IMG/VR virus record: IMGVR_UViG_3300034683_000142
Location: 34,885-98,884 of that record
Length of the DNA: 64,000 bases
Reading direction: 5' to 3' (one strand)
Source: a virus
The position numbers were made by a program, and so were the translations under genes. Below are positions 4,629 through 39,063 of this stretch, piece by piece (the first letter of the stretch is position 1; each line of letters starts with the position of its first letter). Under the pieces are notes generated by a model that searched no databases, had not been told where the DNA came from, and worked only from the letters and a program-made list of their open reading frames with translations.

Positions 4629-4868
4629 ATGAGAGTAAAATTACAACAGGGTGGCCAAATGCCACAGGATGCTCCTCAGGGTGCTCCACAGGAACAACAA
4701 GCTTCTCCAGAAGAACAGATAGCTATGATGGCTCAGGAAATAGTAAGACAATTAGGCCCTGATGGTGCTGCATTGTTAGCTCAAGCTATTATGTCTATTT
4801 TACAACAGGCACCACAGCAAGCTCCTGCTTATGCAAGGAAGGGTGGAAAATTAGTAAGAATTGGGTAG
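4629..4868 (+). CDS. Small Gln/Pro/Ala-rich virion protein
   Basis: 79-aa ORF bracketed by LQQGG and ARKGGKL motifs. Confidence 0.7.
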   Translation: MRVKLQQGGQMPQDAPQGAPQEQQASPEEQIAMMAQEIVRQLGPDGAALLAQAIMSILQQAPQQAPAYARKGGKLVRIG

Positions 4869-4874
4869 CTAACT

Positions 4875-4912
4875 AATAAAGAGAAGGCTATATTAGTCTT
4901 CTCTTTATTTTT
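4875..4912 (+). terminator. Rho-independent terminator
   Basis: AATAAAGAGAAGGCTA-TAT-TAGTCTTCTCTTTATT hairpin ending in a T-run. Confidence 0.7.
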
Positions 4913-4926
4913 AATTTATTAATAAA

Positions 4927-7900
4927 ATGGGATTAGTAAAAAAATATGATAATGGAGGTAGTTTTGCAGATTATGTTAAAGAAAGGCTTGCTAAAGGGGA
5001 CTTACCTTTAACTAATAAATCTTATCCGATAATTAATCAGAGACTACAAAGCTTTGATGGAAGCACTGTTTCTGGTAATGTTAAAAAGAATTGGGCAGGT
5101 CAAATAGTTGCTAATACTCCAGAAGAAGCTGATGCTTTTCTTGCGAATTTATATCAAGATTACAAAAAAATTACCTCTAACGTATCCCCAATAACTCCTA
5201 AAGAAGGATGAGGGCCAGTAGAAAGATCTATAGGTGATTTAGCTACATATGTAGCTAATAAAGACTTTGGTGGAAATACAGAATACGCAGCTCAAGAAAT
5301 AGCAAAAATGAAAGATAACAATCAAGTTAAAAGGTATGTTGCAAAACATGCTAAAGACTTGCTTAGTGATTATATAAATAAAGCTGCACAAAATCCATCT
5401 GACAATTGAAGAGACTTAGACAAAGTTAAAAATATATACTCTAATATAGCTAATATTGATTATAATAATCTAACAGACGATGATTGGGATAAATTAAAAG
5501 CATGGACTAATCAATTAGATTGGCAAACAGGTAGATTTCTTATACCAGATACAGAATTAGCTAGAAGAGAGGAAGAAACTAAAGCTAAAGAAGAAGCTGA
5601 AAAAATAAATAATATATCTAATACTTTAAAAGATATAGGTATTACAGATGAAAATGTACAAAATTACTTGTATCAATCTGGATATACTAAACCAGCTGAT
5701 AATTTAAATCCTTACCTAAGTAATTATCTTAAAAGTAAAAATTATACTGCATTAACAAATGGACAAGGATATAAGATAATAGGTAATAATAATTTAGTAA
5801 CTAATGAATCTGGATTACTTACAACTGATGTTTTATCTCCAGACTATGGAAAAACTTTTTCTATAGTAAATGGTGACCTAATAATACACGAAAAAGGTGT
5901 AAGACCAGAGAATTTTAAATTACCAGAATTTCCTGATGAAGGAGATGTATCTAAACAGCTAATATTTAAACAAGATATACCTGAGTTTAGTTCACAAGAA
6001 GGATGGATAGCTTATGGAGATTCTGGTAGTTCACTAAAAGGTGAAACTGCTAGAGATGAATTTGGTAGAAGAGATTTTCTAAAAAATATAATTTTTATCA
6101 ATAAAGATAAAAAACAACTGATTAGGGCTATTAGACAAGATGATGGTACTTATAAAACTCCAACTGGAGTTATTAAAATACCAGAAATTGAACGATTTGG
6201 TTCAACAATAAGATTTGAACCAAGATCTGAAGATGTATTATGGAATAATCCTACATTACCACTTAAAAATATACCGTTACGTGTGCTACCAAAATATAAC
6301 AAACCAGGATATCTTGAAAAAGTATTAAAGGACTTATCTGAAATAGAGCAAGCTTTAGATAATAGCATTAATAAAGAAAATGATGCAGATATAAATCAAA
6401 AGAAATTAAAAGAAATTGCTCAAGCTTTAAAGTATTATGGAGTATATGGCAATCCTGAACAAAAGAGAATTGCTGATCAAAATTCTGCAAAACTTAGTAA
6501 AATAGCTGCAATTACAAATCCAGAAGGCAAAAAATTATTTTCTTTATACAAGAAAGGTGGAATACTAAAAGCACAAAATGGAGATACTCTAGAAAATATA
6601 GTAAAAACTAATAGACAGTATGCTATAAATACACAGCCTACTACTAATAAAGCTGCAACACAGCCACTTGTTATTAAAGGAGTAAAAGATACTTCAAGAG
6701 CAATAAAGAATGCTGATGCTTTAGATATTGTATCATTAGCTGGATCTACAGCATCCTTTATTCCTGGACTTGGGGTAATAGGTGGACTAGTCTCAACTGG
6801 TGCTGATGCTATAAAAGGATATAAAGAAGGATGGGATAGACAAGATACTATGAATTTATTTGGTAATCTAGGATTTACTTTATTAGCTGGATTAGGCTTT
6901 GGTGCAGCAAAAGCTGGAAAAGTAGCTAAGCAAGCTAAAACTGTTTATAAAGGAGCAAAAAGTTTAGACCAAGCAGAAGACTTAGTAAAAATGGCTAAAA
7001 ATCTAGGAGGTGCAGATGAAGTTGTTAAGTCAGCTGAAAATCTTACAAAGGTTGGAAAAAATCTAGGAGAAGATGTTAAACTAAGTAAGTTTATAAACAG
7101 TAATAAAGCATTTAAAGATACAAAGAAAGTAGAAAAACTAAATGATGCTCTTAAATCTGCTGGATATTCTGAAGCTAGAAATTCAGAGGAATTGTGACAA
7201 GTATTAGGTAGAGATTTAGATAATGTAGCTGATTTAGCAAAGTTAAAACAAAGTACAATTGTTAATGAAACTAGAGAAGCTATAGAAGGTGCTAAAAAGG
7301 CAGGAAACTTTGTAATAAACAAAAGCTCTGGTGTAGCAAAAACAATTCTTCCATTATATACAGGGTATGCTGGAATTACAGGTGCTGGAAATTTGGTATC
7401 TAATGTAAGAGAAGATGGTTTAGCTGGTGTAGGAAATACTTCAATAGATGATATTAGAAGTATGATACAGTTAGGAGGTTTATCAAGAATAGGTTATAAA
7501 AACAGACAATATTCTACTTCTAGAAATTTAAATACTCATGTAGTAGGTGGAACTACTCCTGAAACTACTATAAAAGTAGATGGTAAATCATTTAAAGTAG
7601 AAGGTGATGTAAGACAAAAAGGACTAAATAAAGGAATAAATGTTTTAGGCAAGAAAACTGTTTTTGCTGGTAAATCACAAGAAGCTAAAAAAGAATTTCT
7701 AGAAAAGGTAAAGAAAAATTTATCCGATAAAGATAAGGAAGCTTTAGAAAAAATACTCAATAAAGAATCTATAGGTAAGATAGAATTTGAATTTTCTCCA
7801 AGTACAGGAGGCACTGTTGTACTAAATGATGCTCCTACATCTCTTAAATATAAAGATGTTAAGTCTTATAATATAGCTAAGAAGCAATTAGAAGGAGGAT

Positions 7901-9174
7901 ATAGTCAATATGGTACTATTGGAAGGCTGCTTAATAAAAAAGTTCCTAAGAAAGATATAGGCGGTTTATTGAGTATTTTAGGAGACAGTAAAAAACAATA
8001 TAAATTATCTTATGATAATCCATTATCTAATAAATCTTGGTATAAAGGGTTAAATAGTAATACAAATACATTTGAGAATATGTATTCTAGAATAAATTTA
8101 CCAAAAACTTTATCAGATACTAGGAATAATACAAGTACTAATACATTTGAACAATTTACTCCAGTTCCATATACTAAAAAACCATATAAAGATTTAGGAT
8201 TGTTCTTTAACACTTTACAATATGGGCTTACCAATTTATATAATGATAAGTCAACAAATTTACAAGTAAGAGCAGCTACTGAAATTCCTAAGTTAAGTAC
8301 TATGGATTATACTTATTTAAAAACAAGTACTCCATATAGTAATTATGCTTCTAAGCAAGCAGCAGAAATGAGGGGATATGGTAACAGGTTAGGAACTTCT
8401 ATAGCTGATATAGATAAAGCAAATGCTTATAGGTTACAAGCTAATAAACAAGCATCAGATACCGAACTTCAAGGCAAGTATAGAGATATAGATATGAATA
8501 CTAAAATAACTAGTCAGCAAGCTGATTTAAATAGTAGGGTAAATACTTATAATACAGATATTATGAATAAAATATCTGCGCTTGGTTCTCAGGCTAGAAG
8601 TAATGTATATAAACTATATGCTAATAATGCTGCTGTAAAAAATGCTAATATTCAAAATTTATTAAGATATTTAACATATAGTTCAGCTGAAAGACCTTAT
8701 AAAGAGGCTTCATGGAATTATATGCAAGAAACTCTTAATCCTAATATTATGAATGCTTATAACTATGAGCAGAAGTTGAATGGAGAGATATTAGATGACT
8801 TTAAAAAGGAGTATGATGAGTATTATGGTAAATTAGAAAAAACATCTCCAGAATATCTTAATAGACCTAAGTTTGAAGACTCTCCTGGGGGTAGAAAATA
8901 TAAAGAAGTAAAAGATGCTCATCAAAACTTAATAAATTCTTTAAATACTAATTTACTTACTTTACAAAGAGGAGTAGCAGCAGTATCTCCATATGGTATG
9001 GCAACAACTCCATACTATGCAAGAGGTGGCACTTTAAATCTTGGTGAAAGAATTGTATTAGAGAATGTTAAAACTTCTAATAGAAAAGCTCTAAAACGTG
9101 AAGAAATGTTTTATAGGCAACTTTTAAATAATAATAAGTTAGTACAAGCAGCCTTAATAAAAGTGTTTAAATAA
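4927..9174 (+). CDS. Large virion cargo/ejection protein, ~1415 aa (three TGA)
   Basis: ORFs 4927, 5668 and 7393 share one frame and are separated by TGA. Gly/Ala-rich hydrophobic segments (SFIPGLGVIGGLVSTG; GFTLLAGLGFGAA) and several xxGG motifs. Confidence 0.75.
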
Positions 9175-37000: not shown

Positions 37001-38692
37001 GATAGGGAACAAATAGACTATTTTGAACTAAATCTTGATACTATAGCTCATAAGGTAGCTTTTTATAAAACTAGAAAAAGAATATTCGATATAATACTCC
37101 CAACTATTGAATCATATGTATGGTGAATGAAGTTAATGGGAGGAAAGATGGATGAAAAGGTTAGGAAGCAACTAAACTATATAGTTAACCAGGTAAACCT
37201 AGCAGTATTTAGTAAACCATTAGTGGATGATGAAGAGAAAAATATAGCTCAAGGATTAGCTTTTCAAAAGAAATTTTCTACTATAGCAATGCTAGCTTTT
37301 AGACCAACTATGTTAGTAAAAGAAATAACTGTTGGAACTATAAGAAATCTACTTACTGCTGGTACAGGAATACATGCTGACTTTGGAGAAAAAGAAATGA
37401 TAAAGGCTTATGAAAAGTTATTAACTGTAGGGTTAAAACAAGCTGTAGAACATAATTTAATAGAGGCATTAAATAGTGAGTATAGAATAGCTAATATGGA
37501 TATAGCAACCATGCCAGAAAAAGTTCAACATGATAAATTAGGATTGGCAAGGGGATTAGGTAGATGAATGTTTGCTACATCAACTGGTGGAGATTACTTT
37601 AATAGGTTAGCCATATTATTAGCTAGAATGATTAAAGATGGTTCTTATGAAGCGCATTCTATGAAAGGAAATACTTTAGTATATGATCCAAGAAAAGATA
37701 AAAGATTTTCCTATTACTTAGCAGAAAGGGAAAAGTATAAGGATGCTGATGGCAATTATACTAAAAAATCTGGAGACTCTTTATACAATGAGCAAAGAAA
37801 TCTATATCTTTTAATGATAGAACAATTTAATTCTGAATATGCTATTGTAGGAGAAGGTCATCTTACAGAAAAAGATTTAATTCCTAAAGCTTATACTCTT
37901 AAAGAAAGAAACTCAATAAAAGCTATGGCTGATAGAGTATATGGAGCATATGATAAAGATGCACAAGCTCAAATTAATAATAAGTTAGCAGGAATTGCAT
38001 TCTTTCAATTTATGCAGTATTGGCCATCAAAAATGCAATTTTGATTTGGTAAACCAATATCAGCTGATGCATCTCCTGTAGGTAAGTTTGAACATGCAGT
38101 CAAAAAAGATGCTGATGGCAATCTAATACTCGATGATAAAGGTAAACCAATACATTTATATCTTAAAGATGTTGTAGATGAAAATGGTGATCCAGTATTA
38201 GATGAGTATGGTGTTCCAAAAAGAGAAATTGTAGAATATGAAACAGATGAAAAACTTATGGCTTGAAATGGCACTCCACAAGAAGGTATATTTTATTCTG
38301 TCTTTTATACAATAAATGATTTAGTTAGATTAAACTGGGATGATCTTAAAAAGAATAAATGAAGAGTAAATAGAACTCTTTATGCCATAGGAGATTCTGT
38401 TTTGATCTTTATGATATTAGGTATTATGAGAGCTATATACGACTCAATGAAAGATTCTACTGAAAGAGGTACTTTTAGTGGTGAAACTGTAGCCTTTATG
38501 GATGCTGTTAATACAAAAGTACTTAATGAGTATAATTTATGAAATAATACTTTTGGAGCATTAAGTTCCGAACCAGCATGATTAAGTTGGAGTTTAGGAG
38601 CCATGCAAAATGTAGGAGATGTTATTCAAGGTGACAAGACTTTGGGTAAAGCAGCTGCACAATCTATAGGTATGTTTGAAATGTTAAGATAA
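34052..38692 (+). CDS. Large virion cargo/RNAP-associated protein (~1546 aa, ~13 TGA)
   Basis: One frame from ATG 34052 (MGCFYY) to TAA 38690-38692, interrupted only by TGA where read. Confidence 0.75.
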
Positions 38693-38700
38693 AAAAAAAT

Positions 38701-38736
38701 AAGCCGAATACAGTAATTTCTGTACTCGGCTTTTTT
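38701..38736. terminator. Bidirectional intrinsic terminator 1 at the convergence of the two gene blocks
   Basis: A-run, then AAGCCGA-ATACAG-TAATTT-CTGTAC-TCGGCTT, then T-run. Confidence 0.8.
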
Positions 38737-38748
38737 ATTAAAAAAAAT

Positions 38749-38782
38749 AAAGGGAATAATCTATACAGACTATTCCCTTTTT
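38749..38782. terminator. Bidirectional intrinsic terminator 2
   Basis: AAAGGGAATA...TATTCCCTTT hairpin flanked by A- and T-runs. Confidence 0.7.
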
Positions 38783-38836
38783 CTAACAAACAAACAAAAA
38801 TAAAATGGAAACAAAATAGTTTTTAACTATTTTAAT

Positions 38837-39063
38837 TGGGGAGAGAGCAGGATTTGAACCTGCATGATTGGATTTTGAAATGGAGGCCAGTCTACAAGTT
38901 TTTTCAATGGGAATTTTACCCATCCTGCTTATTAATGTGTTTTCTGATGTGAGTTTTGTCACCTCTCACAGCCCACGTGGATTATGTATTATGCCACGTT
39001 GCAGTCCTTGTGCACTACCAATCTTACCATCTCTATGCGTCTAACCAATTCCGCCATCTCTCC
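38837..39063 (-). ncRNA. tRNA-like RNA (227 nt) with a large structured insert replacing the anticodon arm
   Basis: Acceptor stem GGAGAGA/TCTCTCC followed by CCA. D-arm GCG-GAATTGGTTAGA-CGC; T-arm GCAGG-TTCAAAT-CCTGC. There are 172 nt between the D- and T-arms. Confidence 0.75.

Follow-up and report, generated by a model that had tools for sequence, protein, structure and literature searches.

A stretch of 64,000 nucleotides of a viral genome (the window) carries on its minus strand, at positions 38837-39063, a real tRNA-shaped frame of the tRNA-Leu type, and we favour, at a probability of roughly 0.55, the reading that this frame belongs to a genuine RNA gene that does not decode: a scaffold processed like a tRNA, with an upper half derived from tRNA-Leu and with a functional insert in place of the anticodon and variable arms. 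The frame is shared by a family of phage and metagenome elements, its interior is exchanged as a cassette between near-identical phages, the insert of the window copy is conserved with covariation, no anticodon arm is present, and the element resembles the tRNA-like RNA1 of phage T5. The window is part of a 98,884-bp IMG/VR virus record of 28.5% GC, which is estimated to be about 53% complete.

The acceptor stem, the Leu-like D-arm, the canonical T-arm and the 3' CCA that had been named in the initial annotation were all found on the minus strand, and the oversized spacing between D-arm and T-arm was borne out, at 173 nt where 172 had been given (Table 1). Of the features of the tRNA model RF00005 the element has the acceptor stem, the D-arm and the T-arm with its T-loop, while no hairpin with a 5-bp anticodon stem and a 7-nt loop follows position 26. 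In the window copy the CCA abuts the acceptor stem directly; it is probably a coincidence, because the homologs have ACA or ACT at this end and CCA is not encoded in host tRNA genes. The suggested searches with ARAGORN and Rfam were run. Default ARAGORN gave no call in the window and so missed the element; with introns allowed it made one call in the entire 98.9-kb genome, which is this locus, reported as a 'tRNA-Thr(GGU) with a 138-nt intron' whose anticodon stem is mismatched and whose variable arm does not pair. Rfam at its gathering cut-offs matched no family in the window. In a permissive scan (E up to 10) the tRNA model matched only the T-arm, with 14.4 bits against a cut-off of 29, and the other matches were terminator look-alikes and plastid UTR models that fit the reverse complement of the T-arm. 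Folded as a single sequence, the element is marginally better than its shuffles (z -1.73).

Table 1. Features of the element and its surroundings, in coordinates of the window.
Feature	Position	Strand	Basis or remark
Complete element (227 nt), a frame of tRNA-Leu type around an interior of 173 nt	38837-39063	-	Full-length alignment with homologs L226 and L305
Acceptor stem (7 bp), 5' strand GGAGAGA	39057-39063	-	Partner strand at 38840-38846; no variation within the subfamily
D-arm of bacterial tRNA-Leu type, GCGG-AATTGGTTAG-ACGC, preceded by U8 and G9	39037-39054	-	5' 26-mer matches host tRNA-Leu(GAG); D-loop same in T5 RNA1
Linker of 13 nt, ATAGAGATGGTAA, holding the GAGATGG strand and the 'GGT anticodon' forced by ARAGORN	39024-39036	-	Variable among homologs; proposed partner deleted in L226
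Closing helix b, 5' strand GATTGG	39018-39023	-	Pairs with 38866-38871; both strands invariant in three homologs; picked by RNAalifold
Hairpin H1 (ACGTGG/CCACGT) with conserved loop AAUACAUAA	38975-38999	-	Conserved, little covariation; similar loop motif in L064
Hairpin H2 with near-invariant loop AGGUGA(C)AAAA	38949-38969	-	4 of 6 pairs changed on both sides among three homologs
Conserved A-rich junction CAGAAAACACAUUAAYAA	38929-38948	-	No conserved reading frame across it; homologs differ by a 1-nt indel
Helix GCAGG/CUUGU enclosing H3 (38907-38923) and conserved UGAAAAAA	38894-38928	-	3 of 5 H3 pairs changed on both sides
TTTCAAA, proposed as UCA anticodon loop	38874-38880	-	Deleted in L226, different in L305
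3' strand of closing helix b, CCAATC, with A and U48 after it	38866-38871	-	Invariant in three sequences; RNAalifold
T-arm GCAGG-TTCAAAT-CCTGC, canonical	38847-38863	-	Sole part matched by the Rfam tRNA model (14.4 bits)
Acceptor 3' strand TCTCTCC and CCA (C73, then CA)	38837-38846	-	Read from the sequence; TCTCTCC at 38840-38846
Exchangeable cassette, 168 nt differing from near-identical phage L002	38868-39035	-	98.0% identity over 4692 nt up to 39036; 100% from 38867 down
Two intrinsic terminators downstream of the RNA, at the convergent junction	38749-38780, 38701-38732 (38701-38780)	-	3 terminator-like sites against 0.3 expected

Two metagenome contigs (L226 and L305) carry full-length homologs of the window element at 78-79% identity. 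Only the RNA matches; their flanks have no similarity to the window genome at the DNA or the translated level. The structure common to the three sequences, supported by RNAalifold and by explicit counting of pairs, has 95.9% of its cells paired and ten base pairs changed on both sides, a level reached by none of 500 shuffles, with slid controls at no more than 1; both the covariation and the structure derive from these same three sequences. The parts follow one another as acceptor and D stem, 13-nt linker, 6-bp closing helix, H1, H2, the GCAGG/CUUGU helix with H3, two bases and the T-arm, and the H3 loop is T-loop-like in L226 and L305 and UAAAAUU in the window. The three hairpins proposed for the insert are therefore present, and H2 and H3 are kept in the homologs through compensatory changes, which together with the sole intron-allowed ARAGORN call in 98.9 kb argues that the element is more than chance. 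Less fortunate was the long helix GAGATGG/CCATTTC, which is not conserved, its 3' strand being deleted in L226. The pairing GATTGG/CCAATC, mentioned in the initial annotation as an alternative, is correct as a pairing and is in fact the conserved closing helix, invariant in the three sequences. A pseudoknot of crossing helices (a-b-a'-b') seemed by eye to recur, and was rejected because L226 does not conserve helix a and because chance alone would give short helices in interiors like these. Because the insert keeps its 78-79% identity within unrelated flanks and its pairs change in a compensatory manner, we consider it to be under selection, and the three sequences point to a folded, functional insert in the window subfamily only. 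L226 and L305 both have a box of the type TAnnTTTG, the Bacteroidota promoter consensus, 8 and 17 nt upstream of G1.

Several searches for a partner or an origin of the insert were negative. The Shine-Dalgarno-like loop of H2 (GAGGUGA) pairs with the 3' tail of 16S rRNA no better than with shuffled tails, and no antisense target was found in the phage's own genome (best match 13 nt, E 0.2). As to a host origin, 401 sampled Bacteroidales genomes gave chance-level A-rich matches only. Blastn against the phage collection returned no match, and exact-pattern scans of viral contigs for motifs of the subfamily found none.

With the two ends of the frame, 5' and 3', as queries, scans of viral, genome and metagenome collections yielded a family of at least 23 distinct phage or metagenome elements, 73-226 nt long, which share the frame almost letter for letter. 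Near-constant are the acceptor, the D-arm, the T-arm, U8, A14, A15, G18G19 and U48, while the interiors (22-175 nt, many of them 100-175 nt) are of some 20 unrelated types. In 21 of 23 members the interior ends in T (binomial p about 1e-11), despite the position of this base, U48 (the partner of A15), at the edge of the variable region. The discriminator is A73 in 21 of 23 members, C73 being restricted to the window and L002 copies. Furthermore, the frame is near-identical in nucleotides across phages of 27-52% GC, and its 5' 26-mer (acceptor strand and D-arm) is identical to that of the host Bacteroidales tRNA-Leu(GAG). Oversized members with other frames have compensatory acceptor stems (AGTCCTG/CAGGACT and AGTCAGG/CCTGACT) and the T stem ACAGG/CCTGT. 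Four loci (L066, L067, L068 and L072) adjoin ordinary tRNA genes, and the anticodons assigned by ARAGORN differ from member to member. Across the family loci no conserved neighbouring protein or partner gene was found. Taken together, the interiors do not clearly exceed shuffled sequence in structure (mean z -0.38, p 0.057), and a helix adjacent to the T stem is weak family-wide (Fisher p 0.002, with 3 of 23 members individually significant). A scan with the window-type 3' end returned ordinary tRNA-Ser genes only.

Some members depart from the common layout. In L072, two Leu-framed oversized elements lie in tandem (4789-4882 and 5007-5114), with the acceptor stems AGTCAGG and GGAGAGA, and ARAGORN calls the first of them tRNA-Ile(GAT) on an unconvincing anticodon stem. 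Two minus-strand members (L279:185-346 and L076:7359-7479) have a hairpin-sized insertion in the D-loop in addition to their non-tRNA interior, the D region being 49 nt in the former and 37 nt in the latter. On the minus strand of L063 (IMGVR_UViG_2791354870_000002), an element starting at 8581 has the 5' Leu frame followed by a T-arm and by more tRNA genes; the acceptor strand on the side of its T-arm pairs with an internal GAGGTG and not with the 5' end, and it may be a rearranged or composite member.

The interior is exchanged between near-identical phages. L002 is a phage with a ThyX identical to that of the window phage, about 15 close relatives of which were detected through this protein (P0121-P0136, with ThyX identities of 89-100%). 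Between the two, identity holds to base 28 of the element and resumes 31 nt before its 3' end, the cassettes in between (168 nt in the window, 170 nt in L002) are unrelated, and the upstream flank is 99.5% identical; since both flanks belong to the same phage, a misassembly is unlikely. Common to both are the acceptor, the D-arm and A26 on one side and TCAT, the T-arm and the acceptor on the other. This shared sequence contains no anticodon arm, so that if the interior were an intron its product would have none. Similar exchange is seen in the pairs L066/L067 (flanks 97.6% identical upstream and 93.2% downstream, elements of 117 and 125 nt), L226/L259 (upstream flank 97.2%, abutting the element, elements of 220 and 85 nt) and L064/L069 (flanks 72% upstream and 75% downstream, elements of 135 and 137 nt). 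A constant frame with an interior swapped between near-identical phages is a new property of tRNA-like stable RNAs. The frames probably serve as homology arms for the exchange, which suggests a locus in conflict with the host. We advance, as a tentative and rather unlikely idea, that Bacteroidota phages have in this frame a common 'socket' for unrelated cassettes, which enter it by recombination and make it a hypervariable RNA locus under arms-race selection, where each cassette would be a decoy, an inhibitor or a guide against a host defence or a competing phage and the three-hairpin cassette of the window would be one successful, horizontally spread version.

The closest known relative of the window element is RNA1 of phage T5 (rna1, T5s03, NC_005859 30501-30644), annotated as 'tRNA-like stable RNA with unknown functions'. 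The two have in common the tRNA upper half, the Leu-type D-arm and the non-tRNA interior. The D-arm of RNA1, CCGG-AAUUGGUAGA-CGG, has a D-loop identical to that of the window element, its acceptor is of 7 bp, its T-arm is canonical, and its 80-nt interior ends in U48; it is likewise missed by default ARAGORN and forced into a 'tRNA-Leu with intron' when introns are allowed. However, RNA1 keeps a remnant of the anticodon stem and a class-II variable arm and sits in a tRNA cluster, whereas the window element has neither arm, carries a larger insert, of 173 nt, and lies at a convergent junction where it stands alone, and the two interiors have no sequence similarity. RNAC and RNAD of phage T4 (species 1 and 2 RNAs) are small stable RNAs encoded with tRNA genes and expressed late, with no established role (PMC3014915; PMC9697503). 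RNAC also ends in a T-arm and an acceptor-like strand, but neither T4 RNA has a Leu-type D-arm or any sequence similarity to the element, and the fold of RNAD that we made has little tRNA likeness. Thus, the suggestion of an undescribed tRNA-mimic class was right in substance as regards the mimic, and wrong as regards its novelty, T5 RNA1 and T4 RNAC and RNAD being long known.

The host Bacteroidales tRNA-Leu(GAG), which shares its 5' 26 nt with the family frame, has A73 and no encoded CCA; it differs in its normal anticodon arm (loop TTGAGGG), its class-II variable arm and its T-arm, and the phage elements are without these interior parts. The tRNA-like domain of tmRNA and the engineered 'tRNA scaffold' likewise hold a foreign domain instead of an anticodon arm in a frame of acceptor, T-arm and D region. 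The scaffold for recombinant RNA of Ponchon and Dardel, from 2007, in which the frame reportedly gives processing and stability, is a laboratory construct and serves as an analogy only, while tmRNA differs from the window element by G3.U70, a tag reading frame and a set of pseudoknots. Lak megaphages, whose hosts are Bacteroidota, have tRNAs with 'enigmatic introns' (10.1101/356790). By their description these are also oversized tRNA-like genes that bacterial tRNA finders miss and their inserts belong to no Rfam class, but they have assignable anticodons and occur in copies with and without the insert, whereas the window element keeps no anticodon arm. The identity of tRNA-Leu in E. coli depends on A73 and A14, and charging does not require the anticodon arm (PMC9976931), so that most members of the family could accept leucine. 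The window element has U8 and A14, and leucylation of this copy is doubtful given its C73.

As to how the element might work, we infer that it is processed and stable and that its function resides in the insert rather than in the frame; it may or may not be charged. The RNA would be transcribed at the end of a non-recoded early block, just before two terminators. Because of its frame it would be matured like a tRNA, through RNase P, 3' trimming and CCA addition, and have the stability of a tRNA. The insert, a domain closed by the 6-bp helix in which conserved A-rich strands connect the three hairpins, would be the working part, acting on some host or phage partner. Across Bacteroidota phages the same frame carries unrelated inserts, swapped between near-identical phages. 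Against this scaffold speak the interiors that as a group are not clearly structured, the helix next to the T stem that is weak family-wide, the lack of a conserved partner gene and of an antisense target in the phage's own genome, the C73 of the window copy instead of the leucine-identity A73, and the absence of a tRNA cluster from the window genome.

The element lies at a convergent junction. The plus-strand block, which extends to window position 38692, 145 nt from the element, consists of giant ORFs with tail-fibre and virion structural genes that have up to 19 in-frame TGA per gene, and all listed plus-strand ORFs terminate in TAA. In the minus-strand block (39183-63950) most genes are without in-frame TGA; the element is on the strand of this block, 120 nt after its last small ORF and before the two strong terminators. 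The 'boundary' between recoded and non-recoded genes to which the initial annotation had drawn attention is the intergenic junction of two converging modules, and no more. Directly 3' of the element, an AT-rich hairpin AATAGTT-AAAA-ACTATT followed by TTTGTTT (38806-38836, minus strand) may act as a weak terminator or as a site of 3' processing before the two strong terminators are reached. An alignment of a 1208-aa late protein with 33 homologs places Trp opposite its 19 TGA positions in 497 of 627 cells and Leu in 2, although some homologs may have been translated under code 4; TGA is thus read as Trp in the late block. The gene of this protein lies upstream of the window (L329:5924-9547, genome 5924-9547), has 19 in-frame TGA and encodes a calcineurin-like phosphoesterase domain (PF00149). 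Full-length homologs of the protein number more than 190, and the contigs that carry them reach 185-280 kb; the genome of this phage clade is therefore probably about 185 kb. No tRNA gene and no other tRNA-like sequence was found in the 98.9-kb record, about 53% complete. No canonical tRNA(UCA) was found in this record or in the 59-kb contig of a relative, which together cover all but about 50 kb of the probable 185-kb genome.

An opal suppressor had been proposed on the basis of a UCA loop. TTTCAAA is indeed present at 38874-38880, and it is specific to the window copy, so that as a conserved anticodon it fails. We deleted every internal segment of the element in the three homologs and scored the products by ARAGORN. 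The product that scored best was Thr(GGU) in the window, Arg(CCU) in L226, and Lys or Trp in L305. UCA was called in the window only; this call requires that 150 nt be excised, forms 3 of 5 stem pairs and scores 105.9, where the 5th percentile over 854 genuine tRNA calls is 111.3. No stop-reading call came from L226 or L305 after any excision. The loop was also expected to be restricted to TGA-recoded phages, while most family loci are 83-95% ORF-covered under code 11, a crude measure on loci this short. Hence a suppressor tRNA is contradicted by the non-conserved loop, by a family that occurs in standard-code phages and by the inconsistent excisions; the amino-acid identity also does not fit an opal suppressor, the frame being of the Leu type and TGA being Trp. 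Since the sequence shared by the window and L002 has no anticodon arm and the excision 'anticodons' differ among the three homologs, the element is not an interrupted decoder.

The main rival to a functional insert is that the frame itself is the working part. By mimicking tRNA-Leu, the RNA would be a decoy or sponge for some factor that reads the acceptor, the elbow and the core but not the anticodon; such a factor could be LeuRS, a defence nuclease that cleaves tRNAs or an enzyme of tRNA processing. The interior would then be a spacer that is tolerated and changes rapidly, and that takes away the part open to cleavage or used in decoding. Near-identity of the frame across 27-52% GC next to unrelated interiors of as little as 22 nt suits it, as do the retention of U8, A14, A15 and U48, the A73 of 21 of 23 members in a tRNA whose Leu identity needs A73 and A14 and no anticodon arm (PMC9976931), and the weak structure of the interiors as a group. 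Moreover, defence systems cleave the variable loops of class-II tRNAs, and phage tRNAs may serve either as a decoy or as a supplement (PMC13096335). It suits poorly the covarying insert of the window subfamily, where 78-79% conservation with compensatory changes and invariant loops in unrelated flanks is unexpected of a spacer, and also the many interiors of 100-175 nt that have not been trimmed to a minimum, and the C73 of the window copy; we rate it as unlikely. Very unlikely, in our view, is a processing signal, in which RNase P would cut off the fold to form the 3' end of the upstream early mRNA, with the released RNA as a by-product. The mascRNA does the same for the 3' end of MALAT1, and RNase P requires only the acceptor/T-arm stack and the elbow; the position also fits, as the element is last in the minus-strand block, 120 nt past its last ORF and just before two terminators. 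Against it, the L226 and L305 elements have apparent promoter boxes of their own immediately upstream, other family members lie in tRNA clusters, an ordinary tRNA would suffice, and the conserved insert is left unexplained.

A gene whose insert is removed by some splicing route to give a decoding tRNA, possibly the missing UGA suppressor of the phage, is largely refuted and highly improbable. It would fit the TGA recoding that ends 145 nt away, the absence of tRNA(UCA) from the record and the relative's contig, the ARAGORN call with introns at this locus, the reported introns of Lak phage tRNAs (10.1101/356790) and the recoded crAss-like phages without a detectable suppressor noted by Yutin et al. 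(PMC7886860). Yet TTTCAAA is missing from both homologs, the UCA product falls below the 5th percentile of genuine tRNAs, the best products disagree and ARAGORN anticodons vary family-wide, the sequence shared with L002 has no anticodon arm, TGA corresponds to Trp next to a Leu-type frame and most family loci are not recoded; in a genome about 53% complete, the suppressor may also lie elsewhere. A group I intron was rejected: Rfam gave no match even at E up to 10, inserts go down to 22 nt, and the shared 'exons' have no anticodon arm. Equally improbable are a decaying tRNA-Leu pseudogene and a tmRNA-like rescue RNA. The missing anticodon arm and a fold only marginally better than shuffles would suit a pseudogene, but the frame is perfectly kept, its stems covary, U48 is retained and the insert is conserved amid unrelated flanks. 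For tmRNA, also considered in the initial annotation, there is the layout of acceptor, D region, long helix and T-arm, which resembles the tRNA-like domain; the acceptor has A3-U70 instead of G3.U70, a 1-nt indel breaks any shared reading frame, neither ARAGORN nor Rfam gives a tmRNA match, and 73-nt members are too short for a tag. YrlA, a bacterial Y RNA, was rejected as well. In YrlA, the RNA ends are on the anticodon side, where they form the Ro-binding stem, and the tRNA-like acceptor is closed by a loop; this topology is opposite to that of the element, which ends at its acceptor stem, and Rfam gave no match.

With the non-decoding scaffold preferred, a tempting wrong answer to the question of how recoded crAss-like phages without a detectable suppressor read UGA is removed. 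The tRNA-like stable RNAs of T5 and T4, half a century old, are linked to a widespread family in gut Bacteroidota phages. A constant Leu-tRNA frame with an exchanged interior is a pattern typical of host-conflict loci, and its function is testable by cassette swaps. Furthermore, standard tRNA finders miss such genes or, with introns allowed, give them spurious anticodons, which can mislead the annotation of phage tRNA sets and genetic codes.

On the relative's contig, which extends about 34 kb beyond the end of the record, the only tRNA-like genes are a tRNA(CAU) and a D-arm-less tRNA-Ile(UAU)-like gene. The latter (L334:1501-1579, minus strand, equal to G403:C1:39156-39234) has 33.2 bits in Rfam, is missed by ARAGORN and contains, after the anticodon arm, a 20-nt segment with the D-loop-like AAUGGUAA. 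The tRNA(CAU) (L334:2742-2815, minus strand, equal to G403:C1:40397-40470; Rfam 43.8 bits) has C33 and two extra bases at positions 8-9, and ARAGORN misreads it as having a 2-nt anticodon.
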